A stretch of 45,385 nt of DNA. Source: a virus. Where the stretch lies: UHGV virus genome UHGV-1373008. One strand, 5' to 3'. The notes under the pieces were generated by a model. The model had not been told where the DNA came from. It searched no databases and saw nothing but the letters and a program-made list of their open reading frames with translations. The position numbers and the translations under genes are program-made. Of the stretch, positions 3,855 through 40,949 are shown piece by piece. The stretch's first letter is position 1. Each line of letters begins with the position of its first letter.

Positions 3855-4391
3855 TCAAAATGGTACATCATCGTCGAAGTCAACAGGCGGATCTTCATCC
3901 TGCGGCTTTACCGTTTGCTTTTGTTGCTTTGCTGCTGGAGCGGATTTAGTCTGCTGGCGGCCAAATACCCCGGCAACGTAGTTGCCTGACTTCTGCTTAT
4001 CGTCAGACTGCCATACGCGAAGCAGGAGGATCATCGGGCGGTTAGCCAGAGCGCTTGCGATAGCAAAATCAGTAGGCTCTTTCCCTGACGCCATCAATTT
4101 ACCTCCAGCGTTTGCGTCAATTGCTGCAAGCATGCTGATGGCGTTATCGCGCTGCTTGTCCTTCTGGCTGAAAACCTTCAGCTTCTGGAAGATGATACGA
4201 TTTTTGTAATCACCGTCCAGGATGCGCCATTTAAGGTTAAAGAAGCGCTCACCTTCCCATTCATCGTCCTTGCACTCCTCCACTGCTGCCAGTACGCGGG
4301 TGCCGTCAGGAATAACTTCAAAACCACCACCAGCCTCAAATTCAGACTTTGACTCAACTTCTTTACCGTCAGAAAGATTCCAGAAACCCAT
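3855..4391 (-). CDS. DUF669-like phage replication-module protein with SSB-like acidic C-terminal tail (..DFDDDVPF)
   Basis: The C-terminus mimics the bacterial SSB tail (DDDIPF). Sits in the conserved Gp157/Sak4/DUF669/helicase order. RBS GAGAGGACA. Confidence 0.6.
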   Translation of the reverse strand: MGFWNLSDGKEVESKSEFEAGGGFEVIPDGTRVLAAVEECKDDEWEGERFFNLKWRILDGDYKNRIIFQKLKVFSQKDKQRDNAISMLAAIDANAGGKLMASGKEPTDFAIASALANRPMILLLRVWQSDDKQKSGNYVAGVFGRQQTKSAPAAKQQKQTVKPQDEDPPVDFDDDVPF

Positions 4392-4407
4392 TTTTATGTC
4401 CTCTCGA

Positions 4408-4887
4408 TTATTTGATGATCAGCTTTGGTTTTCCATCGGTGATGGCACAACCTTTAATTTCAGTTCCGGCTTTCAGTGCTGCTTTAATCGCTGCATTATC
4501 TGCCGATACTTTTACAACACGATACTGCTCTGGCAACTGCTCAACCGGGACAAACACATCCAAAACAGGAGATGGTTTGCCAAGCGTTATGCTGAACAGC
4601 TTGCCTTTGATATTCGTTTTTCCAGATGCAAGCATGTTCTGACGAAGATAATCTTTCAGGTTATCTATCTTCGCAGTCAGCACCCGCTTGCGTTCTGACA
4701 TGCGTTCAATCTCAGCCTTCATGCCAGCTTCATCCGCCTCAAGCTCGCTGATATAAGCTGCCACCATTTCGGCCTTTCCTTCAAACTCCTCCTCAATCAG
4801 GTTAATGGTATCTTCAATCTGCTCGCGCGGAATATCTTCCATCGCAAGCAGTTCGTTAAGCTGTTTCGTTATTTCGTAAAGACGCAT
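4408..4887 (-). CDS. Sipho_Gp157-like protein (coiled-coil N-terminus)
   Basis: About 160 aa. Composition and position next to the Sak4 ATPase are as in Streptococcus phage gp157 family modules. Confidence 0.5.
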   Translation of the reverse strand: MRLYEITKQLNELLAMEDIPREQIEDTINLIEEEFEGKAEMVAAYISELEADEAGMKAEIERMSERKRVLTAKIDNLKDYLRQNMLASGKTNIKGKLFSITLGKPSPVLDVFVPVEQLPEQYRVVKVSADNAAIKAALKAGTEIKGCAITDGKPKLIIK

Positions 4888-5698
4888 AATACTTAATCTC
4901 TGTCATAAGTGGATTTTCGCCTTTATCAAACTGAATCTCAGGTTCAAGGTTGAAGCGATTTTTCGCATTGACGTAACCAACCCGGCCATCACCAGAGGTG
5001 ACAAGTACACGCTGCCCTGTCTGCACAACTTTACCGAACTTAGTTACCTGCCCTTTTTTATCTGTCTCAGTACCCTTCACAAACTCCTCATTGCGGATAT
5101 AGATAACAGCATCGCTAAGCGCAACGTAACCATCAATACTGGCTTCGTGCATATTGAGGGTGTAAACGGTGTACTCGTCAGAATCCGGTCTGTTCTTCAT
5201 CTTACGTATGCCAGCATGCGCAAGATAAATGATGCTCATACCTTTGTTGGAGCGCAGATACTTGCAGGCGTTAATAATTTCAGCATGCATCTCCGCCACA
5301 ACCAGATAGCCCTTGTTGTAACCACCGGCCGCTGCACCAACGTTATCTACTCCATAGTTTTCGCAAACCTCATGCTCAAACATGGCGTGGAGGCTGGTGA
5401 TGGAATCGATAACCAGCGTTTTATAGTCATGCTCTTCTGTAATAAGAGCGCGCAACTGTGACAATAAGTCTTCTTTTGTGCTCGTCTTGCGCTTTGCATC
5501 AGCTCGCTTCAGAACAGGGAATGAATCAGGCTTGTTTTCTTCGTCCCAGTCGTCGAATACGCCGGTAATCTCTTCCGCCTGAATGAAAACAGGCTTAGGG
5601 AATAGCGCTGCAAGAGTCGTCTTGCCAACGCCAGGCGTGCCGACAAGAGTAATGATAGGTGCAACTGGTTTTGGTTTTTGAATCATTGATAAGCTCAT
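4856..5698 (-). CDS. Sak4-like AAA_24 ATPase (RecA-fold recombination/replication ATPase)
   Basis: Walker A GTPGVGKTT. The track ORF begins at a GTG (5716); the ATG at 5698 is preceded by the strong RBS GAGAGGACA, so I place the start at 5698. Confidence 0.75.
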   Translation of the reverse strand: MSLSMIQKPKPVAPIITLVGTPGVGKTTLAALFPKPVFIQAEEITGVFDDWDEENKPDSFPVLKRADAKRKTSTKEDLLSQLRALITEEHDYKTLVIDSITSLHAMFEHEVCENYGVDNVGAAAGGYNKGYLVVAEMHAEIINACKYLRSNKGMSIIYLAHAGIRKMKNRPDSDEYTVYTLNMHEASIDGYVALSDAVIYIRNEEFVKGTETDKKGQVTKFGKVVQTGQRVLVTSGDGRVGYVNAKNRFNLEPEIQFDKGENPLMTEIKYYASLRNNETA

Positions 5699-8806: not shown

Positions 8807-9379
8807 TTAGTCAAACTGCGTCAGGTTGTATTCTGTGACGTTTATGTACTGTTTCAGTACGACGTCATGCGGAGCGCCGCTTTCTTTTATGGCTGCGTCG
8901 ATTATTGTTTTTTTATCGGTTGTGTTTTTCATTATTTCAATAATGATACCCCTAACCATCCTTGCACGAGCCAGATGCTCATCAGGCGGGAGCTTTGAGT
9001 CTTTCTTGATTTCTGGCTTAGAGCTATCCTCAACCGAACCAAGTACGTAGACTATTGCTCTGTTGCTGCCTATCTTTCTATTGCTATCAATCTTTATGGA
9101 ACCATCAGTAACCATAAGGTTTAGCATTTCTGAAACTTTTGTTTTGCTGGCGCTCTCTATGCCAGCCGCTGTTGAAATCAATTTTTTCTTTGTCATCCCA
9201 CCAGAGTCCCTGACAAGAGAGATGATTCTTTCCCTTACCGCAGAGTCTTTATCAGTCCTTGTGGTTGATAACATCTCAACGACAGAAAGTATTCTTGATC
9301 TCATGTTACCAATGTCTTTTTCATAGGTAGCCTGCATCAACATAAAAACAACTGCATCTTTCTTCATAGTCACCTCCAC
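8807..9379 (-). CDS. Hypothetical low-GC protein (190 aa), possibly two winged-helix-like repeats (..NRAIVYVLG..)
   Basis: Strong RBS GGAGGTGAC. AT-rich codon usage unlike its neighbours. A promoter-like TTTACT-N17-TAGATT lies upstream. Confidence 0.5.
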   Translation of the reverse strand: MEVTMKKDAVVFMLMQATYEKDIGNMRSRILSVVEMLSTTRTDKDSAVRERIISLVRDSGGMTKKKLISTAAGIESASKTKVSEMLNLMVTDGSIKIDSNRKIGSNRAIVYVLGSVEDSSKPEIKKDSKLPPDEHLARARMVRGIIIEIMKNTTDKKTIIDAAIKESGAPHDVVLKQYINVTEYNLTQFD

Positions 9380-9610
9380 TGGTTTAGGCTAACAATCTAA
9401 CCTAAAATCATCTTAAAGTAAATGTGACCTTTAGAGCATTTCTTATGAAAAAAAACAGCATAATGAAGAATCCTTTAATCATGCGGCTTGCGTGGATTTT
9501 TTTGTGTGGTATCATTTTCTACGTAAGCAGCAATAACCATCCATGAAAGAAGAGAAGACTTTCAAAACGACTTTCGAAACAATCATTAATTGTTGATTTT
9601 TAAGAATAAA

Positions 9611-9714
9611 AAATCCGAAAGCCTAAAAACCGAAAGATTCTCGATCAAAATCCAAAAAAAATCATCTAACTTTAGAAAATAAATCCCACCCAGTTTTTAG
9701 GATTTTCGGGATTT
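9611..9714. repeat. Cluster of five AAATCC/GGATTT hexamer repeats (three direct, two inverted) plus duplicated CCGAAAG
   Basis: Read directly from the sequence. Confidence 0.6.
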
Positions 9715-9924
9715 AGGCCTACAACCCGCATCAATCCTCGCTTTCTATCGTCGTGACGCAAAAAACGTTCGGGACTATAGAGACCCCTATAAGACCTTTT
9801 TTTCTCCTTCAATACTTACTAATTATTTATATATAAACAATAGACTTTAAAACCTCTTAGAGAGATAGTAACTCACGTTACAAAAATATTAGCTTGCTAT
9901 TGTTTATTTATTTTCATCATCATA

Positions 9925-9953
9925 TTGACGTAGATTGAGCGCCATCGTATAGT
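9925..9953 (+). promoter_or_regulatory. Promoter TTGACGTAGATTGAG-N8-TATAGT (a consensus that recurs across this phage) driving the rightward small-gene array
   Basis: -35 at 9925-9930, 17-bp spacer, -10 at 9948-9953. RBS AAGAGGTG before the ATG at 9985. Confidence 0.6.
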
Positions 9954-9984
9954 TACCACACCAACAACAAAGAGGTGATGAAGA

Positions 9985-10206
9985 ATGAAAAAAGGACAAA
10001 TTGTTACAGCAACAGAAGTAAAACTTGGCTCAGGCGGCTATCTGACAGAGGGTAAGTCTTATGAGATTGTTTCTGCTATTGGTGATGAATGCCAGTACGG
10101 AAAAATAAAAACAGAATTTGGATTCGAAATCGTAAATGATATGGGTACGAAAAGCTTCTGCCTGTACCCAGAATGCCTTCACGCTAAATGGAGTATTTCA
10201 GAATGA
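9985..10206 (+). CDS. Hypothetical protein (73 aa)
   Basis: ORF track; RBS. Confidence 0.5.
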   Translation: MKKGQIVTATEVKLGSGGYLTEGKSYEIVSAIGDECQYGKIKTEFGFEIVNDMGTKSFCLYPECLHAKWSISE

Positions 10207-10688: not shown

Positions 10689-11138
10689 ATGGATATCGAA
10701 ATTAAAGAAGTTCAGGAAATTATTAAAAACCTTGAGAGTAGTGGCGAGCTATCAATCAAAGAGGAAAAATACCTCAAGGTGGCAAAGCTGTGCATGCAGG
10801 TGGTTGCGGAAAATGTGGGGATAAAGGGGGCAATCCATCAACTAAAAAATATTGATTATCAAAATGAAAGCATGAATGACGTGACATTGGCAGAAGAGAT
10901 TGGGTTCAATGCAGCTGTGATGGCCATGTATCGCTGGGTTCCTAAAACCCCCGGCTACGATGCGATCGGTGGCGGGGTTAAGGCTGATGGAGTGGATGAG
11001 TTTTCGAAAACTCTAGAGGGGGCCGCTGACATTTGTGGTAAGTCAAAAGCATGGGGGGCGCAAGAAAATTTACTTGATTTTGCTGAGCGTGGATTCGACT
11101 TCGCCAAGCAGCTGCGCGAGGGGGCTAATCATGACTGA
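10689..11138 (+). CDS. Hypothetical protein (149 aa)
   Basis: ORF track. Confidence 0.5.
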   Translation: MDIEIKEVQEIIKNLESSGELSIKEEKYLKVAKLCMQVVAENVGIKGAIHQLKNIDYQNESMNDVTLAEEIGFNAAVMAMYRWVPKTPGYDAIGGGVKADGVDEFSKTLEGAADICGKSKAWGAQENLLDFAERGFDFAKQLREGANHD

Positions 11139-15560: not shown

Positions 15561-15589
15561 AATCTACGCCATGCTAGAATCTACGTCAA
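15561..15589 (-). promoter_or_regulatory. Promoter TTGACGTAGATT-N11-TAGATT (minus strand) with two copies of the AATCTACG(C/T)CA motif
   Basis: -35 is the reverse complement of 15584-15589; -10 is the reverse complement of 15561-15566; 17-bp spacer. Confidence 0.55.
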
Positions 15590-20611: not shown

Positions 20612-21340
20612 ATGTCAAAAAAAATGTCAAACGAAGACTTTGTGGCATCAGCCAGGGCAGCACACGGGAGTAGATTCAGGTACGAAAAGTGCGTTTATGA
20701 CGGGAAAAAGAAAAAATTAATAATAATTTGTAGGATGCACGGGGCTTTCCTCACTCATCCAGATACCCACTTAAAGGGAAAACATGGAGGATGTGATAAG
20801 TGTGCAAGGATTCAGCATGGCAGGAGATCATCAGAAAGGTGCAGGAGCAAGGTGAGAGACCTTGATATTTCCGATATCGTTAAATATGAACCTGAAACGG
20901 GTGATTTTACTTGGGTTAAGAACACAACAATTCGAGACTCAATAGGAAGGAAGGTTGGTAGCAAAACTAAGAATGGTTATATTGAATGTCAGATTCAGGG
21001 AGAGAGGTACTTACTACATAGACTGGCTTGGTTTATGCACTATGGATCATGGCCGCCAGGTGAGATAGATCACATTAATTGCATCAAAACAGATAACAGA
21101 ATTAAAAATCTTAGGCTTGCCACTTTTTGTGAAAATCAACAAAACAAGGGCATTTCAGAAAGCAATAAGTCAGGCGTCAAAGGCGTCTGCTGGGACAAAA
21201 GGTTATCAAAATGGAAAGCCAGGGTCTACGCATCAAGGGTGTTGGTGGCAGAGAGGGTATTTGACGACCTGAATGAAGCCGCAGAGTGGATAAAAAATGT
21301 TAGAATGAGACACCACAAAGAATTTTCCCGGGAGGCTTAG
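20612..21340 (+). CDS. HNH homing endonuclease with C-terminal AP2 DNA-binding domain (paralogue 1 of 3)
   Basis: HNH core LHRLAWFMHYG...IDHIN..TDNRIKNLRL. AP2-like segment SGVKGVCWDKRLSKWKARV. Confidence 0.75.
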   Translation: MSKKMSNEDFVASARAAHGSRFRYEKCVYDGKKKKLIIICRMHGAFLTHPDTHLKGKHGGCDKCARIQHGRRSSERCRSKVRDLDISDIVKYEPETGDFTWVKNTTIRDSIGRKVGSKTKNGYIECQIQGERYLLHRLAWFMHYGSWPPGEIDHINCIKTDNRIKNLRLATFCENQQNKGISESNKSGVKGVCWDKRLSKWKARVYASRVLVAERVFDDLNEAAEWIKNVRMRHHKEFSREA

Positions 21341-28112: not shown

Positions 28113-29201
28113 ATGGAAAAGATTATCTTTACGAAAGGCCTGATCACCAACTCGCAGGTGGTCAGAGAGCAGTGGCGCCACCTGACTGTTGACCGCAAGG
28201 TTTTCATCAATGGTGAAAACGCTCTGGCGAAAGAATACGGCGTGAACGCCACCGCACTGGTAACGAAAGACTACTGGCGCGAAGTGGACGATGTGACCAC
28301 CCGTGTCTTCCGCAATGAGTCCGGCATGGACATGATGGCCGACCTGATGACGCTGGCGACCAACATCAACATCGGCAAGACCGTGGCAGTTAGCCGTATG
28401 GCTTCCGACGCTGGTAAGGTTGTGCGCACCATCTCCGGGCAGGAGCCTGAAGACCTGGATAAAACCCGCTACTCCTACAGCGGCGATGTAATCCCGATCT
28501 TCAAAACCGGTTATGGCCGTGAGTGGCGTGAGCTGCTGGGTATGCAATCTGAAGGTTTCGACCCGCTGATTGATGACCAGGAAAACACCACCTTCAACCT
28601 GCGCGCAGACATGGCGGATTATCTGCTGGTCGGCGATGCAAGCCTGAACGTGAACGGCGTTTATACTGCTTACGGCATCACCAACCACCCGAACACCGTG
28701 CAGCTTAACCTGAGTGCCTCCGGTACTGGCGAGCTGAACATCGACCTGCAAACTGCAACCCCTGATGAAATCGTTAAGTTCTTCAACCAGGATTTCCAGG
28801 CGGTTCTGGATACGCAGAACGTGTTCGAGCCGGTTACTCTGTGGGTTTCTCCGGCCGTGCGCCGATCCTTCAGCCGCCCGTACTCCAACGCGGCAGGCTT
28901 CAAAGGCGGCACCATTGAGGATTATATCCTCGCATTCGGCAAAACCGGCAACGTTGGCCGCATCGCGTCTATCGGCACCAACTTCAAGCTGACCGGGAAC
29001 CATTTCGTCGGCTATGTGAAGAATGCGCTGTATATCCGCCCTCGCGTCGCTCAGCCGGTATCCACCTATGCAGAGCCGCGTACCACGCCGCACGCTAACT
29101 TTAACTTTTTAACGTGGGCTGCTATGGGTTTGCAAATTCGCCGGGATTTCTCGGGCCGAAGCAAGGTGTTCAACGGCTACGGCACGCAAACCGCGCTGTA
29201 A
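28113..29201 (+). CDS. Major capsid protein (lambda gpE-like family)
   Basis: 362 aa. Position. Strong terminator follows. Confidence 0.65.
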   Translation: MEKIIFTKGLITNSQVVREQWRHLTVDRKVFINGENALAKEYGVNATALVTKDYWREVDDVTTRVFRNESGMDMMADLMTLATNINIGKTVAVSRMASDAGKVVRTISGQEPEDLDKTRYSYSGDVIPIFKTGYGREWRELLGMQSEGFDPLIDDQENTTFNLRADMADYLLVGDASLNVNGVYTAYGITNHPNTVQLNLSASGTGELNIDLQTATPDEIVKFFNQDFQAVLDTQNVFEPVTLWVSPAVRRSFSRPYSNAAGFKGGTIEDYILAFGKTGNVGRIASIGTNFKLTGNHFVGYVKNALYIRPRVAQPVSTYAEPRTTPHANFNFLTWAAMGLQIRRDFSGRSKVFNGYGTQTAL

Positions 29202-29243: not shown

Positions 29244-29438
29244 ATGGCTAAATACGAAGTTATCGCCAGCGGAATCTTTGTCAAGGATAAAGACGGTCGC
29301 CTGCGTGAGCTTGCTATTGGCGATATCATTGACGAATCAAGCCCGCACATTGAGTCAAAACTTCGCCCGGTTAGTGAGAAGATTCTGGAAGTGGCAACCC
29401 CACAAGAATCACAGCCAAAGGCGAAGAAAACTAAATAG
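29244..29438 (+). CDS. Hypothetical protein (64 aa)
   Basis: ORF track. Confidence 0.45.
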   Translation: MAKYEVIASGIFVKDKDGRLRELAIGDIIDESSPHIESKLRPVSEKILEVATPQESQPKAKKTK

Positions 29439-29470
29439 AAAAGCCCCGCGAGGGGCTTTGGTTTATTTTA
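29439..29470. terminator. Bidirectional terminator (AAGCCCC-GCGAG-GGGGCTT + TGGTTTATTTT)
   Basis: Stem-loop between convergent transcription units. Confidence 0.7.
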
Positions 29471-29603
29471 GCGTGAACCAAACCTTATCTTCTTTTTCAT
29501 GCAAGTGGTCGCGCTCTTTTGGTTCTGGAAAATCCTTTGGGTCTAACCCCATCTCGCAAGCAGTATCAAAAGAAACATCATCTTCGTCAATGCTGTCACT
29601 CAT
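29463..29603 (-). CDS. Small acidic protein (46 aa), last gene of the minus-strand ParB/DnaN-like operon
   Basis: Open frame starting 3 nt after the DnaN-like stop and ending in the terminator. Confidence 0.3.
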   Translation of the reverse strand: MSDSIDEDDVSFDTACEMGLDPKDFPEPKERDHLHEKEDKVWFTLK

Positions 29604-29605
29604 CA

Positions 29606-30142
29606 CTAAATCCTCATTGGCATAACGATAACTTTTGCAGTCTCTCCAGTAGGCGCACTGATGTTTGCGACGGCGGTGCTGGTGTTGCCATTCAACTCAA
29701 ATAGCACCGCTTCAAATTTCGGGTTAAACAACTTCGCCAGCTTCTCAACATCGGCAAGATATTTGGCATTGAAGCCAATCTGTTCTGCTGGCGCGGCCTG
29801 CTTAGGAATGATGCGATCAATATCAGGGTAATTGCCGTCAACCTCAGAGCAAATACCTGCGCCAACCAGCACATCAAAATTGTTATGATAAGTGACAATC
29901 TTTGCCATGGTATCAATCACCGCATATGAATAATTTTTTGTCGGCGACTTGCTTATCGACACGATGACGTTACTTTTTATTTTGTTTTCATGCTTACTGG
30001 CAATCATGGCGCGATGACCGTCAGTAGCGGCAACTCGACCATCAGGCATAAAGCAAATGCCATTCAGGTAGTAACGCACATCCTGTTTGTCTTGAAATAT
30101 CAAAGCACCTTCAAGGAGTAACTTGCTAACTTTTAATTTCAT
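29606..30142 (-). CDS. Truncated DNA polymerase III beta (DnaN) sliding-clamp homologue (178 aa, roughly domain II plus a shortened domain III)
   Basis: QDVRYYLNGICFMPDG..VAATDGHRAMIAS versus E. coli DnaN QDVRYYLNGMLFETEG..RTVATDGHRLAVCS. C-terminus AKVIVMPMRI versus AAYVVMPMRL. Confidence 0.7.
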   Translation of the reverse strand: MKLKVSKLLLEGALIFQDKQDVRYYLNGICFMPDGRVAATDGHRAMIASKHENKIKSNVIVSISKSPTKNYSYAVIDTMAKIVTYHNNFDVLVGAGICSEVDGNYPDIDRIIPKQAAPAEQIGFNAKYLADVEKLAKLFNPKFEAVLFELNGNTSTAVANISAPTGETAKVIVMPMRI

Positions 30143-30315
30143 CACTTCACCTTTATCATGTGTTGTTTTGCAACCTTCAGGCATTCATCGAAAATCTTGC
30201 CATTCTTTTCACTCTGGTTGCTCCTGTAGTGGGTAATTGCGGCCTCTATAGCCGCGTTGTCGATGCCTGGCAGTTTTTCGCGCAGGTTTTTCTCTATGAA
30301 TTGCTCGTGGTTCAT
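30142..30315 (-). CDS. Small hypothetical protein (57 aa), coupled between the ParB-like and DnaN-like genes
   Basis: TGATG overlaps at both ends. Confidence 0.35.
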   Translation of the reverse strand: MNHEQFIEKNLREKLPGIDNAAIEAAITHYRSNQSEKNGKIFDECLKVAKQHMIKVK

Positions 30316-31130
30316 CACAGCTTCTCCAGAATCGCCAGCACTTCATTCAACTCAGCAGAAGGAAGGCGCAAAAATTCTTCTGTCTCCTGTGCCACATGCC
30401 CCTCGGCTACCACCATGTGATCTGCTTCTTTCAGCAACTGAATCAGGCGGTCAATCGGCTTAACTTTTTTGGCCTTGAGGGTTTTCGCCGTCACCTTATC
30501 TTTTCCCTGCGCTTTCGCTTCCTCAACGGCTGCATCAATAACGTTAACAGCATCATCGCCATGCTCACGTGCTACCGCAACGGCGTTGGCATAGCTGATT
30601 TGGCCTGCATTGATGCGTTGCTTGATGGCATCAGGTACATCACCAAGTGACAGGTGCATCTGCACATCAGAAACTGAGCGACCAACCTTCTTGGCGATTT
30701 CTTCATTCGTCCATCCGAACCCTTTCAGGCGCACATAAGCCTTTGCACGCTCAAGCGGGTCAAGCTGCTTTCCTTGACTGGATGACACCATGAAGGCGAT
30801 TTTATCCGCTTCATCGCCGGTGAAGTCTTTGCACTCAATGCGCGCAATTGGTATTCCGCGCTCAATGGCACGCAGTGCGCCAAGGTAACGATGCTGGCCG
30901 TCAAGAATCTTGATACGCTTTCCGTCGGCATCAGGAATAACAGTTAACGCAGGGATTGGCTGGCCTGATTCCCAGCACTGCGCGAAGTATTCAACGTGCT
31001 GCTCATCGGCTTCGCGGATGTTGTACCCCGGCTCAAGATAAAGCTGATCGACAGGAACCTGATAACCTTTGTTGACCACGATTCCGCCGCGAGTTTCTTT
31101 GTCTGAGTAAATTTTTCCGAGAGATGTCAT
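30315..31130 (-). CDS. ParB/Srx-like nuclease-domain protein
   Basis: ParB N-terminal motif KILDGQHRYLGA. Start at an internal ATG with RBS GAGGAAAAG. Confidence 0.7.
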   Translation of the reverse strand: MTSLGKIYSDKETRGGIVVNKGYQVPVDQLYLEPGYNIREADEQHVEYFAQCWESGQPIPALTVIPDADGKRIKILDGQHRYLGALRAIERGIPIARIECKDFTGDEADKIAFMVSSSQGKQLDPLERAKAYVRLKGFGWTNEEIAKKVGRSVSDVQMHLSLGDVPDAIKQRINAGQISYANAVAVAREHGDDAVNVIDAAVEEAKAQGKDKVTAKTLKAKKVKPIDRLIQLLKEADHMVVAEGHVAQETEEFLRLPSAELNEVLAILEKL

Positions 31131-31137
31131 CTTTTCC

Positions 31138-31254
31138 TCACTTTGATAAACAGATTGCGCTGGCAATGGCGAATCCGATAACGATTAATGCCAGCTTGAT
31201 TTTGAAATTGCGCCATGCTTTCAGGTCTTCTTTGCGGATTTCGTGGCGGATCAT
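31138..31254 (-). CDS. Small membrane peptide (38 aa; charged N-terminus, hydrophobic C-terminus)
   Basis: ATGA-coupled to the upstream gene. Sequence MIRHEIRKEDLKAWRNFKIKLALIVIGFAIASAICLSK. Confidence 0.3.
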   Translation of the reverse strand: MIRHEIRKEDLKAWRNFKIKLALIVIGFAIASAICLSK

Positions 31255-31520
31255 TTTGATTCTCCGAGTGCTTTGGCGATTGCTGCTTTAGCTTTCGAGG
31301 TGTTAACGTAGACACATGCGCGAGCCTCCAAATCCAGCAGCGCTTCCAGCAATTCAGGCGCTGCGGCAATGAGCTGTGCATCATGGATGTTCTGAATATC
31401 TTCTATCGTGTCGTATGGGCCCTCTGCTGGGATATCAACATCTATTGATGTAAGTCTATTGCGAAGTCTCCACGGCCCCGGCGTACCTTTGAATTCATTC
31501 ATCTTCATCACCTCTAACAT
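31251..31520 (-). CDS. Hypothetical protein (89 aa), first gene of the minus-strand operon
   Basis: ORF track. Promoter TTGACG-N17-TATAGT immediately upstream. Confidence 0.5.
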   Translation of the reverse strand: MLEVMKMNEFKGTPGPWRLRNRLTSIDVDIPAEGPYDTIEDIQNIHDAQLIAAAPELLEALLDLEARACVYVNTSKAKAAIAKALGESK

Positions 31521-31530
31521 TTATTGTTGT

Positions 31531-31587
31531 TTCTACGTCATCACTATAGCTACACCCTCAATCTACGTCAACACTTTATGATAAAAT
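31531..31587. promoter_or_regulatory. Divergent control region: minus-strand promoter TTGACGTAGATTGAG-N8-TATAGT (reverse complement of 31543-31571) and plus-strand extended -10 TGATAAAAT (31579-31587); two motif copies
   Basis: Same 15-mer as the promoter at 9925. Confidence 0.6.
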
Positions 31588-31732
31588 TAAACCAACAACA
31601 CTCACCCCGCGCTGTTCCGTCCTGAAAAACGTAAGGCGGCGAAATTGGATATAGCAATCGGCGTTATCGTCATAGCGTTTTCGCTGGTTCAGGTGTACAG
31701 ATGCTGGAAGTTCATCATTCGGAGAATAATTA

Positions 31733-32020
31733 ATGAGAGACGCGTTTCAGCACGCCGCAAACCAGATAATTAGTGGCACTGTCGGCCAGGTAATCGACAA
31801 AGCCGGTTATACATCCATCGGCACGGGCCTTGGCCTGAAGGTGGCAGAGCAGACGCCGGTCGCACAATCATACATTGCCTCAATGATCCCCCATTCGATT
31901 ACCGAGTGGGCAGCGGTAGCCTCTATACTTGGCGCGCTGTCACTGGTGGCAAAAAACCTTTTTGAGATGTGGTGGAAGATTCGGGAGAGTAAAAAGAATG
32001 GCAGCACCGACAGCAAGTGA
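31733..32020 (+). CDS. Membrane protein (two transmembrane segments; holin-like topology), function uncertain
   Basis: Hydrophobic segments. First gene of the tail-proximal operon. Confidence 0.35.
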   Translation: MRDAFQHAANQIISGTVGQVIDKAGYTSIGTGLGLKVAEQTPVAQSYIASMIPHSITEWAAVASILGALSLVAKNLFEMWWKIRESKKNGSTDSK

Positions 32021-33653: not shown

Positions 33654-33730
33654 TGGTTACCGCGACAGGATTCGAACCTGTAATCATCCGATTATGAGTC
33701 GGGTGCTTTAACCAGTTAAGCTAAACGGGA
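33654..33730 (-). tRNA. tRNA-Met/Ile2-like (anticodon CAT) with an imperfect acceptor stem (5 of 7 pairs); possibly a degenerate or pseudo-tRNA
   Basis: D-arm GCTT/AAGC, anticodon loop CTCATAA, T-arm ACAGG-TTCGAAT-CCTGT, encoded CCA. The acceptor has C2/U71 and U7/C66 mismatches. Confidence 0.5.
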
Positions 33731-33733
33731 GTT

Positions 33734-33811
33734 TGGTGCACCATACTGGATTCGAACCAGTGACCTACGGATTAGAAGTCCGTTGCTACTATCCTGCTGA
33801 GCTAATGGTGC
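33734..33811 (-). tRNA. tRNA-Arg (anticodon TCT)
   Basis: Acceptor GCACCAT/ATGGTGC, anticodon stem ACGGA/TCCGT, loop CTTCTAA, T-arm ACTGG-TTCGAAT-CCAGT, CCA encoded. Closely parallels E. coli argU. Confidence 0.85.
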
Positions 33812-34842: not shown

Positions 34843-35121
34843 TTATTGTCGATGGTCATCACCATTCTCGCTGATTGCAGCATCAAGTTGTCGACGCAAC
34901 ATACACAGCGCGCCATGCGGCATAAACTGATTAGCCATGCCATCGAATATCTGCCGGTTTAATTTATTATCAATCCGCGGCCTTATTGCTGACCAGCACG
35001 ACCGTATAGCGCGATTAACCTGGCGGCGGTCGAGCATTGCGAGTCGCGCAGCTAACTCAATGGTAACGAGCGCGTCAAGATACTGCTCGCAGGCATGGCG
35101 ATTTTCGTTATCCATCATCAT
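34843..35121 (-). CDS. Hypothetical protein (92 aa) downstream of an HNH gene
   Basis: ATGA-coupled to the HNH stop. Confidence 0.4.
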   Translation of the reverse strand: MMMDNENRHACEQYLDALVTIELAARLAMLDRRQVNRAIRSCWSAIRPRIDNKLNRQIFDGMANQFMPHGALCMLRRQLDAAISENGDDHRQ

Positions 35122-35603
35122 TTACCATGGTTCTCATGAAAATTATACTTAACCTCCGCCTTTCTCCTTGCTTCAGCGGCCATATTTAAGTCAGAAAACA
35201 ATCCAAGATGAATCTTTACGCCATCAACTTTTATGTTTGAGGCCCATTTTTTATGTTGCTTATCCCATGAAACACCAGTAACACCTGATTTGTTTGTCAC
35301 CCTGAACTTCATGTTGTGATTATTCTCTTTTGGAGTGACAAGCCTGAGGTTATCTATCTTATTGTTTGTTTTATTGTGGTCTATATGATCAATCTGCATT
35401 CCGTCAGGAATTTTCCCATTATGCATTTCCCAGATGATGCGATGAACAAGATACTTGAAGCCATAGATTCCAACAATCTTATATCCATTACCTCCTACCG
35501 CCTTCACCTCGCCTCCTATTTTCACTCTGTTTGAGGTTCTTATCTTCCAGTAAATAGCCCCATCACAATAATAAAAAATATCTGACCAATCAGTTATTTT
35601 CAT
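35118..35603 (-). CDS. HNH homing endonuclease with AP2 domain (paralogue 2 of 3)
   Basis: HRIIWEMHNG...IDHIDHNKTNN. AP2-like segment SGVTGVSWDKQHKKWAS. Confidence 0.75.
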   Translation of the reverse strand: MKITDWSDIFYYCDGAIYWKIRTSNRVKIGGEVKAVGGNGYKIVGIYGFKYLVHRIIWEMHNGKIPDGMQIDHIDHNKTNNKIDNLRLVTPKENNHNMKFRVTNKSGVTGVSWDKQHKKWASNIKVDGVKIHLGLFSDLNMAAEARRKAEVKYNFHENHGK

Positions 35604-39810: not shown

Positions 39811-40283
39811 TGGCTATAGCTTATCCATCATGGCTACCGCTTGCGCAGCGTGCCAGCAAGAACATGACGACTCAAACCCCATTCCGCAGCGATCAGCCTG
39901 CGGTTGGGGCGCCAATATTTCAAAAGTTAACGACCGATGTTGCAGTAACATGGAGTTTGACATGGGTTTTCACGCTCAGGCAGGAGCGGGCATTTATACA
40001 GTGGTTGAGAAGCCCAAACTATCTCAACAAGTGTAATGAATGGTTCACGATGGATATCGATCTTGGTGGCAGCGGATTACAGAATCAGACTTTGCACTTT
40101 ACTGATTACCCCGTGCAGACAAGCATTAATGGCGGCATCGTCACATGGACTGGAAATGTCATCTGTAAAACCCTCAATAACTCCATGGATGAGTTTGATG
40201 ATGTGCTTGTTGAGCTTGATGAGAGATGGTATAGCTTCCTTGATGAAACTGTAAACAGAGAGCTACCAGAACATAGCGATTAA
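39810..40283 (+). CDS. Minor tail protein (gpM-like position)
   Basis: ATGA-coupled to the tape measure gene; 157 aa. Confidence 0.45.
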   Translation: MAIAYPSWLPLAQRASKNMTTQTPFRSDQPAVGAPIFQKLTTDVAVTWSLTWVFTLRQERAFIQWLRSPNYLNKCNEWFTMDIDLGGSGLQNQTLHFTDYPVQTSINGGIVTWTGNVICKTLNNSMDEFDDVLVELDERWYSFLDETVNRELPEHSD

Positions 40284-40771
40284 CAAAACCTGCTAAATTC
40301 GCCAAAAATAACTTTTGCGGCGTTTACATATGCATCGTGGGCTTGCTTTGGAGACAAGAACAAGCCCAAATATTTCTGCTTCCCATTTATCTTTATGCTT
40401 GCCTGCCACTTACCACTTTGCTTGTGAAAGCTAACACCTTTGTACCCCGAGGTGTTATTCACAGTCTTAATTCTATTCATTGCGTTTTGAGATAGCGTAG
40501 CCTCCCTTAGATTGATGATTCTATTGTCGCTCCTAATGCCATTGATGTGATCTATTGCCCTCGATGGCATCTCGCCATTTACATACAGCCACGCCAAATG
40601 GCTTGCTTGATATCTAACCCCATCAATCATTATTGTGATGTAGCTGCTTTTATTTTTCCTTCCGGCAACATCACCATTTTTCACGGAAAATGATTTATTA
40701 ACAAGCCATCTAAAAACACCGCTATCTGCGTTGTATGATAGTAACGACATAAGCTCTTTTTGCGTAATCAT
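40280..40771 (-). CDS. HNH homing endonuclease with AP2 domain (paralogue 3 of 3)
   Basis: SHLAWLYVNG...IDHINGIRSDNRIINLR. AP2-like segment SGYKGVSFHKQSGKWQAS. Internal ATG with RBS GGAG. Confidence 0.7.
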   Translation of the reverse strand: MITQKELMSLLSYNADSGVFRWLVNKSFSVKNGDVAGRKNKSSYITIMIDGVRYQASHLAWLYVNGEMPSRAIDHINGIRSDNRIINLREATLSQNAMNRIKTVNNTSGYKGVSFHKQSGKWQASIKINGKQKYLGLFLSPKQAHDAYVNAAKVIFGEFSRFC

Positions 40772-40949
40772 GGCTATCTCCAAAAAAGTAACGCCCCTGC
40801 CAGGTGGAACATGGTTGCAACAAAACCATACTGGCAAGGGCGTTAAATTTATTGTTGCTTGCTTGCCGTTTCGGGTTCCACGCCTATGCGACATGAGTAG
40901 TGTATGATATATACATCAGTATTTCAAGATTTCCTCAGGAGTATCCATA

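Follow-up and report, generated by a model that had tools for sequence, protein, structure and literature searches.

A half-size β-clamp protein predicted to keep the client-docking pocket, encoded in a conserved antisense operon of a Roufvirus-like Klebsiella phage

The 45,385-nucleotide UHGV virus genome UHGV-1373008, hereafter called the window (meaning this whole stretch of DNA), is that of a virulent Roufvirus-like Klebsiella siphophage and carries, antisense between its head and tail genes, a six-gene cassette in which one product resembles the β clamp DnaN. As judged from sequence comparisons, this DnaN-like protein, here named mini-β, falls into a large and as yet uncharacterised family, the members of which have about half the size of a β clamp and keep only its client-docking pocket. 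In bacteria, proteins of replication, repair and translesion synthesis are organised through the β-clamp pocket as their hub, which is also a target for antibiotics. Our overall reading, to which a probability of about 0.5 is given, is that the cassette represents an early DNA-metabolism operon whose mini-β would bind host clamp clients off the ring. Ligand binding by mini-β through the pocket, as the narrower claim, would appear to be somewhat safer.

The homology itself is readily detected at the profile level, where a profile of six family members matches E. coli β in the PDB at E = 1.3e-21. Compared with the E. coli β clamp (P0A988; PDB 1MMI, 2POL), mini-β shares domain II (aligned to residues 137 to ~252), the C-terminal βαβββ half of domain III (the last such unit, residues 313-366) as well as pocket subsites I and II, whereas it comprises 178 instead of 366 amino acids (aa) and is devoid of domain I and of residues ~255-310, including the I272/L273 dimer-interface region. 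Since domain I and the dimer interface are missing, mini-β cannot form the canonical head-to-tail dimeric ring. Curated DnaN cut-offs are not reached (TIGR00663, 43.4 vs 137.65 bits; PF02767 and PF02768, 21.1 and 16.3 bits, both below 27), and the hallmark motifs of mini-β read DVRYYLNG, ATDGHR, DG(R/N)(F/Y)PD and MPMR(L/I). A longer, 192-aa form of the protein was discarded, as homologues start at the ATG at 30142; this start is translationally coupled to the upstream gene. In deposited records, every RefSeq relative examined carries the label RusA-like Holliday junction resolvase for this protein (e.g. NC_071143 gp74, NC_054646 gp16 and NC_016566 gp08). Pfam, NCBIfam and PDB give only β-clamp/DnaN, so the label is rejected here, and the RusA name looks like a propagated mis-annotation, apparently via phrog_3007. 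As a side observation, a 29-nucleotide (nt) stretch in the region 1353-1391 shows 76% identity to the mini-β codons for KQDVRYYLN (30061-30089), read on their reverse strand, and overlaps a terminator-like hairpin with 12-bp arms (1364-1391); this likeness is probably due to chance, and it could also be a relic of a second mini-β copy.

In a 2024 review, subsite I of the pocket has been described as R152, L155, T172, G174, H175, R176, L177, P242, R246, V247, V360 and M362, and subsite II as H175, N320, Y323, V344, M362, P363, M364 and R365, with G174 and V344 named as the only non-conserved pocket residues (PMC11139829). In the window protein, subsite I corresponds to R23, L26, T40, G42, H43, R44, A45, P106, R110, I111, I172 and M174, and subsite II to N125, Y128, T154, P175, M176 and R177; 14 of the 18 positions are identical and two are conservative (V247I, V360I), leaving L177 replaced by A and V344 by T. 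Across 22 members from unrelated phage lineages, identity to E. coli β amounts to 83% at the pocket versus 28% at the other aligned positions. Six divergent members share 17 invariant columns, of which nine belong to the pocket (Fisher p = 2e-6), and in an alignment of 136 representatives drawn from clustering at 50% identity, the four most conserved columns are G174, P242, R152 and H175, with a mean conservation of 0.71 at the pocket versus 0.36 elsewhere (p = 8e-7). A profile search of 1.84 billion representatives returned 612 matches at E ≤ 1e-10; the top 150 of them are all 57-250 aa long, mostly 170-210 aa, and mini-β is found in at least 150 clusters at 50% identity. Mini-β thus presents itself, on the strength of these alignments, as a stable architecture selected for the pocket and not as a decaying remnant. 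A truncated phage DnaN with a characterised function was not found in the open-access literature.

In other phages, mini-β forms a module of its own that is associated chiefly with replication and early regions, with ParB as a frequent, non-obligate partner. A ParB-like gene lies within 4 kb in 30 of 80 mini-β loci from IMG/VR, namely in the clade of the window, in Serratia phage Eta and in one other; the order in phage Eta is SSB, ParB (32% identical), mini-β (56% identical) and helicase. The families found most often in the neighbourhood of mini-β at the remaining loci are Phage_CII (17), Phage_rep_O (11), DnaB (DnaB_C, 10), lambda P (3) and Dam (2). Mini-β of lambdoid phages sits between cII and O/DnaB/P and so heads the replication module; the genes of Hafnia phage yong1 run cI, cro, cII, mini-β, replication organiser and DnaC-like protein, and those of Vibrio phage PVP-XSN mini-β, Dam and SSB. 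For the lambdoid locus L057, a nucleotide comparison with E. coli genomes matched the O gene only and gave no match for mini-β. In EP23, Kagunavirus and Bcep43, the gene lies antisense inside the head-gene module, alone in the latter two. In Shigella phage EP23 (Dhillonvirus), it adjoins an antisense gene (gp07, positions 4092-4856 of locus L006) whose 254-aa product was considered as a ParB and rejected, being an Nmad5-family (nucleotide modification associated domain 5) protein; this pairing may point to a connection of mini-β with DNA modification in certain lineages. No polymerase was found near mini-β at the inspected loci.

Among the ORFs (open reading frames) of the window, a DEAD/SNF2-type helicase, a Prim-Pol/PriCT-2 primase, a Sak4-like AAA_24 protein, a terminase and a portal protein were identified, and a replicative DNA polymerase was neither found in the ten ORFs scanned nor is one annotated in the relatives. 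Having a primase and helicases and no replicative polymerase, the phage must therefore use the DNA polymerase III (Pol III) of its host. In the mechanism proposed here, host RNA polymerase would transcribe the cassette early, as one of several presumably early, host-σ70-driven units lying antisense inside structural genes. The constant parts of this putative DNA-metabolism operon would be the promoter with its 5' untranslated region (5'UTR), the ParB-like protein, the 58-aa protein and, mostly, mini-β. Mini-β would bind clamp-binding motifs (QLxLF-type) of host proteins away from the DNA-loaded ring, with Pol III α, the clamp loader δ, Hda, MutS/MutL and translesion polymerases as candidate partners, and would either divert these clamp clients to phage DNA or titrate them; both the partner and the direction of the effect are inferred here. 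The ParB-like protein would bind phage DNA and serve there either as a regulator of the KorB kind or as a platform with which mini-β may work in this phage. As a tentative generalisation, which we would put below even odds, a widespread class of phage proteins might represent a free-standing β-clamp client pocket without a ring that captures or redirects host clamp clients, and the phages using it, which rely on host Pol III, would then include lambdoid, Skatevirus/Roufvirus, Dhillonvirus, Kagunavirus and Bcep781-like phages.

Several points weigh against this reading. The AlphaFold2 model of mini-β, computed with an alignment of close homologues only, is poor (mean predicted local distance difference test score, pLDDT, of 60.9) and was used for secondary structure only; in a Foldseek search with it, β-clamps come out on top only at E = 2.5e-3, and with half of domain III missing, an intact pocket in three dimensions is presumed. 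In bona fide DnaN, too, conservation is highest at the pocket residues, which are located in the fold-defining motifs RYYLNG, DGHR, GRFPD and MPMRL, so part of their retention could be structural. Furthermore, mini-β is dispensable for this phage type, being absent from some close relatives such as KlebP_265; given this loss and a ParB link in no more than 30 of 80 loci, the pair is not obligate. The early timing is read from the promoter type, and repeat and palindrome scans for a binding site of the ParB-like protein gave no repeated palindrome family. Finally, no convincing clamp-binding motif (Qφx[LM][FLI], Qφx[LM]x[FL]) was found in 69 phage ORFs, which points to host partners. The sole match, QMHLSL in the ParB-like protein, was rejected: it lies in the recognition helix of the helix-turn-helix (HTH), its Q is not conserved, and it probably arose by chance.

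The features of the cassette are collected in Table 1. An earlier, sequence-only reading had described a self-contained minus-strand operon inserted between head and tail modules, and its description of the layout holds throughout: all six minus-strand ORFs were recovered, with ATGA and TGATG start/stop overlaps read straight from the sequence between them; the promoter and the bidirectional terminator with T-runs on both strands are both present and delimit a separate transcription unit antisense to the structural genes; and the cassette is flanked by the major capsid gene (28113-29201, DUF6260) on one side and by head-tail and tail genes (31733 onward) on the other. RNA folding of the terminator gives z = -2.45 for the minus strand and -4.2 for the plus strand. 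With respect to the gene products, the 89-aa protein has no match in Pfam, NCBIfam, PADLOC or PDB. The 38-aa peptide probably is a single transmembrane segment, as judged from its hydrophobic stretch, and a 117-bp ORF is annotated at its position in Tbat1_6, DP01, KlebP_265 and KpV2811. No match to Pfam, NCBIfam or PADLOC was obtained for the 38-aa, 58-aa and 47-aa proteins, nor one to PHROG for the last of these, whose position holds different gene content in relatives.

Table 1 Features of the antisense cassette of the window and of related promoter sites
Feature	Coordinates	Strand	Remarks
σ70-type promoter TTGACG-17-TATAGT	31543-31571	-	10/12 consensus positions; -35 part of extended motif TTGACGTAGATT
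Conserved 5'UTR	31521-31542	-	second TGACGTAGA copy 31540-31532, 30 nt from first; ribosome-binding site AGAGGTGA
Operon, six coupled ORFs	29463-31520	-	between σ70-type promoter and bidirectional terminator
89-aa protein, phrog_1273	31251-31520	-	first gene; slot varies between genera
38-aa peptide with hydrophobic stretch	31138-31254	-	start overlaps upstream stop as ATGA
ParB-like protein, 271 aa, phrog_1033 (E = 4.6e-87)	30315-31130	-	ParB/Srx N-terminal domain, HTH_ParB, small C-terminal domain
57/58-aa protein, phrog_4439	30318/30315-30142	-	directly upstream of mini-β in all relatives examined
Mini-β (DnaN-like), 178 aa, phrog_3007 (E = 9e-56)	29606-30142	-	β-clamp domain II and C-terminal half of domain III
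Acidic 46/47-aa ORF	29606/29603-29463	-	last operon gene, in variable 3' end
Bidirectional intrinsic terminator hairpin	29440-29459	both	8 pairs, T-runs on both strands
Convergent 64-aa ORF	29244-29438	+	shares bidirectional terminator with cassette
TTGACGTAGATT promoter copies	9925-9953(+), 15589-15561(-), 20554-20526(-), 23940-23923(-), 31571-31543(-), 35765-35757(-)		

The consensus promoter postulated upstream of the operon is likewise present, although the quality of the match is not above chance by itself (three sites found versus 5.7 expected in the region), and its support comes from cross-genus invariance and from membership in a promoter family. When six relatives are aligned, both promoter elements (-35 and -10) and the entire 5'UTR are invariant out to Salmonella Skatevirus BS5, and the 5'UTR is kept in all six, even in BS5 where the first gene differs; the promoter spacer and the upstream DNA diverge and are unrelated in BS5. 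The 9-mer TGACGTAGA occurs in seven exact copies in the genome and, with at most one mismatch, in 19 copies versus 5.5 expected, a number reached in none of 100 shuffles. Hence, the window holds a phage-specific promoter family with the extended -35 element TTGACGTAGATT, and the cassette is one of its units. Copies of TTGACGTAGATT lie directly upstream of the minus-strand clusters 20496-19176, 23898-23231, 31520 onward and 35724-34843, and directly upstream of the plus-strand unit from 9985 as well; for the copy at 15588, the placement relative to genes is less clear. The promoters at 9925 and 31571 additionally share the start of the spacer and the 5'UTR with its ribosome-binding site (…ACAACAA…AGAGGTGATGAAG(A)ATG). 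Similarly promoted units are the normal architecture of this phage group, and the extension of the -35 element could be the site of a regulator.

For the ParB-like protein, the start codon is the ATG at 31130, which is preceded by a GAGGAA ribosome-binding site and at which homologues begin with MTSLGKIY; a 283-aa form with a TTG start was dismissed on these grounds as an artefact of the ORF caller. By sequence, the HTH_ParB domain (PF17762, 43.4 bits, cut-off 22.6) and the KorB domain (PF08535, 27.9 bits, cut-off 22.3) are matched, and the ParB/Srx N-terminal domain stays below threshold (TIGR00180, 43.7 vs 58.45 bits; PF02195 not matched at E = 0.01). The AlphaFold2 model of the protein has a mean pLDDT of 83.8, and its best PDB matches in Foldseek, at E ~1e-9, are KorB (8QA9, 8QA8), ParB (6T1F, 7BNR, 6SDK) and Noc (7NFU); they span the N-terminal domain and the HTH, after which a small C-terminal α/β domain follows. 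Matches to isolated ParB/Srx-fold proteins are weak (E 0.0035-0.046) and cover the N-terminal ~90 residues only. The protein carries the KILDGQHRYLGA motif, and the GxxR P-motif (G78, R81) is invariant in its alignment. GERRxRA is altered to DGQHRYLGA, with the G and the second R invariant and the other arginines gone, and Box III, ENxQR, is degenerate (SSSQGK). Orphan ParB-fold proteins are common in phages, their Box III is often divergent, and the fold can bind ATP, GTP or CTP with a nucleotide specificity that is unpredictable from sequence (PMC12704722). Model and alignment together indicate an orphan DNA-binding protein of the KorB/ParB/Noc type, which most likely binds phage DNA as a dimer. 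No ParA-type ORF (KGGxxK[ST], deviant Walker A) was found in the window, and the ParA-binding motif [LFI]G[KR]G[LFI] is absent from the protein, which is therefore not a partition protein, as the sequence-only reading had also considered more likely from the missing ParA partner. Its further suggestion of a nuclease, to be checked by structure prediction for an intact nuclease site, is not borne out, the structural matches over the N-terminal domain and HTH being to KorB, ParB and Noc and nothing being specifically nuclease-like. A perfect 16-bp palindrome, GAGTTTTCGAAAACTC at 10998-11013, resembles parS and was rejected as a conserved site, as it occurs in only 24 IMG/VR contigs.

A different account of the operon, which is compatible with the DNA-metabolism reading and which we hold possible though on balance unlikely, is that the ParB-like protein is the leading player of the operon, namely a KorB-like transcription factor and possibly an NTP (nucleoside triphosphate)-gated sliding clamp. 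It would silence the TTGACGTAGATT promoters, its own among them, or set their timing, and mini-β would be an unrelated passenger. KorB is among the best structural matches and its Pfam domain is matched as well, two invariant TGACGTAGA copies lie 30 nt apart over the -35 and the transcription start, at least six promoters of the genome carry the TTGACGTAGATT motif, and KorB and BisD provide precedents for ParB-fold regulators (PMC11790492, PMC12409273). An operator role of the TGACGTAGA copy in the 5'UTR is conceivable. However, TGACGTAGA is non-palindromic, whereas the sites of ParB, KorB and Noc are palindromes, for which no repeated family was found here; the degenerate Box III and an arginine patch reduced to GxxR make clamp-like NTP switching uncertain; and TTGACGTAGATT could be a mere extended -35 element.

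The comparison of relatives bears on whether the cassette is core or accessory. The region 29300-31800 of the window is 86-93% covered at ~91-93% nucleotide identity by Roufvirus-like Klebsiella siphophages, among them pYD38-A, pIS4-A, ZCKP8, Tbat1_6 and DP01, and outside the cassette the genome matches the same phages in a mosaic manner (39-60% covered, 86-93% identity). Salmonella and E. coli Skatevirus form the sister group, as reported previously (PMC11990801) and as also seen in capsid and ParB gene searches. At 60% identity or more, the ParB-like gene was found in ~196 phage records and the capsid gene in 203. Gene order is syntenic in Tbat1_6, DP01, KpV2811, BS5 and Bas81, and all inspected relatives have their ParB gene in the same position, antisense and downstream with respect to the major capsid gene. 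Hence, the promoter, the 5'UTR and the ParB gene are core to the Roufvirus/Skatevirus clade at this exact locus, and the cassette is a conserved, presumably early operon of the phage group instead of a recent insert, the timing being deduced from the promoter type; the ParB-like protein, accordingly, is a core orphan ParB of the KorB/Noc type in a virulent phage.

Variation is confined to the first two gene slots and the 3' half. The former hold phrog_1273 and the 38-aa peptide in the window, phrog_14587 and phrog_8760 in BS5, and a 158-aa ORF as first-slot content in Bas81; in the latter, relatives have insertions of C5-methylase, HNH or endonuclease VII genes, the C5-cytosine methylase being the next gene after ParB in close relatives. 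Phrog_14587, as matched in BS5, is named anti-restriction protein in PHROG, and therefore some anti-restriction content passes through the operon in relatives. In KlebP_265, the slot of mini-β is taken by a 172-aa protein, which was considered as a divergent mini-β and rejected, being a fusion of phrog_4439 and phrog_21746. As a separate observation at the 3' junction, Tbat1_6, DP01 and KlebP_265 have an extra plus-strand gene of 272 aa (phrog_5335; 4181-4999 in locus L001, 4182-5000 in L002 and 1684-2502 in L010) between the 64-aa ORF and the cassette terminator, which is absent from the window at ~29440; this junction is therefore an indel hotspot.

These data also bear on the proposal of the sequence-only reading that the cassette, inserted between head and tail modules, has the architecture of a moron or of a defence or anti-defence cassette, a comparison of the insertion point across relatives having been suggested as its check. 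In its rival form, the ParB-like protein would be an effector and mini-β a decoy for a defence sensor, both encoded in an accessory island whose products would shield phage DNA against host immunity or keep other phages out. In line with this are the cassette's own promoter and terminator, the variable first slots and 3' half with C5-cytosine methylase, HNH, endonuclease VII and phrog_14587 genes, the frequent fusion or coupling of phage ParB-fold proteins to DNA-modifying enzymes (PMC12704722, PMC13229309) and the Nmad5 neighbour of mini-β in EP23. On the other hand, none of the six cassette proteins matches the PADLOC defence library at E up to 1, the GC content of the cassette is unremarkable (0.47-0.49, the same as the remaining window), no methylase or other DNA-modification enzyme is present in the operon of this window, and elsewhere mini-β resides in replication modules, not in defence islands. 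With promoter, 5'UTR and ParB gene occurring clade-wide, a recent insertion is not supported, and universality splits the cassette into a ParB core and an accessory periphery; of the defence architecture, only the variable hotspot with methylase and anti-restriction genes in relatives is retained. We therefore regard the anti-defence moron as improbable.

It could also be imagined that mini-β is a genuine sliding clamp, in which three βαβββ units per monomer and four monomers give a twelve-unit ring that would be the processivity factor of host Pol III on phage DNA. The predicted secondary structure does fit about three βαβββ-type units, and the retained pocket, the stable length of 170-210 aa and the replication-module contexts elsewhere would suit such a clamp. 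However, mini-β has lost domain I as well as the known dimer-interface segment, there is no clamp-loader gene in the vicinity, confidence in the monomer model is low, and lambda-type and Roufvirus-type phages without the gene evidently replicate with host β; we regard this as a remote prospect. A decaying, functionless fragment of a captured host dnaN, as the term "fragment" of the sequence-only reading might imply and as the presence of only about half of DnaN and the low TIGR00663 score might suggest, is effectively refuted by the intact ORF with its coupled start, by the same stable architecture of a conserved family in hundreds of phages from unrelated lineages and by the strong position-specific conservation of the pocket.

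Some further features of the window were noted. Two stretches, 1-2000 and 9001-10000, are low in GC (0.36 versus ~0.48 for the genome), the first of which holds a 310-aa ORF (147-1079) without Pfam match and a near-perfect 22-bp palindrome at 524-545. A minus-strand pair of tRNA-Met (CAT) and tRNA-Arg (TCT) genes lies at 33654-33811 between the head-tail genes and the major tail gene, with a σ70-like site TTGACA-17-TAGATT upstream (33857-33829); at the equivalent position, the relative DP01 encodes tRNAs for Met, Arg and Ser. Within or next to its structural modules, the window also contains three dispersed HNH endonuclease genes (phrog_99 or PF13392) at 35118-35603(-), 40280-40894(-) and 20612-21340(+), two of which lie in antisense islands; in relatives, HNH genes are found inside the ParB operon itself.

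In relation to known systems, the ParB-like protein resembles KorB of RK2 (8QA8, 8QA9, 1R71) and the ParB/Noc CTPase clamps in its ParB/Srx fold with HTH and in the retained GxxR, and it shares with KorB and Noc that it has no role in ParA-driven segregation. In contrast to these proteins, its GERRxRA motif is reduced, its Box III is altered and no palindromic operator was found; different from KorB, no KorA or TrbA-like partner was identified and the protein comes from a virulent phage. The ParB activators of phage thymine dioxygenases (PMC13229309) and ParB-methyltransferase fusions (PMC12704722) are likewise phage ParB folds without a partition role, yet the 5mYOX-associated ParBs have no obvious DNA-binding domain, whereas the window protein has a clear HTH. 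With regard to mini-β, phage Mu MuC uses β for late transcription (PMC12867686), and both proteins would manipulate the clamp-interaction network; MuC-type phage proteins bind the host clamp, whereas the phage described here encodes a copy of the clamp pocket.

The genes as such are already known, being annotated in hundreds of deposited genomes as "ParB-like partition protein", "DNA polymerase III beta subunit", "possible moron" or, wrongly, "RusA-like Holliday junction resolvase", and the cassette as a whole is ordinary for its phage group; a functional study of these cassette genes was not found in the open-access literature. New are the pocket-only β-clamp family, as proposed here, and the correction of the RusA-like mis-annotation carried by many RefSeq phage records. 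Model phages of E. coli K-12 in the BASEL collection also carry this operon; Bas77-81 are the Skatevirus isolates there, of which Bas81 was checked. If our reading is true, a ring-less phage pocket would lend itself to competing for the entire network of clamp clients or to acting as its adaptor. It would be a new mode of host-replisome takeover, and it could explain how phages without a polymerase bias host Pol III and repair factors towards their own DNA.

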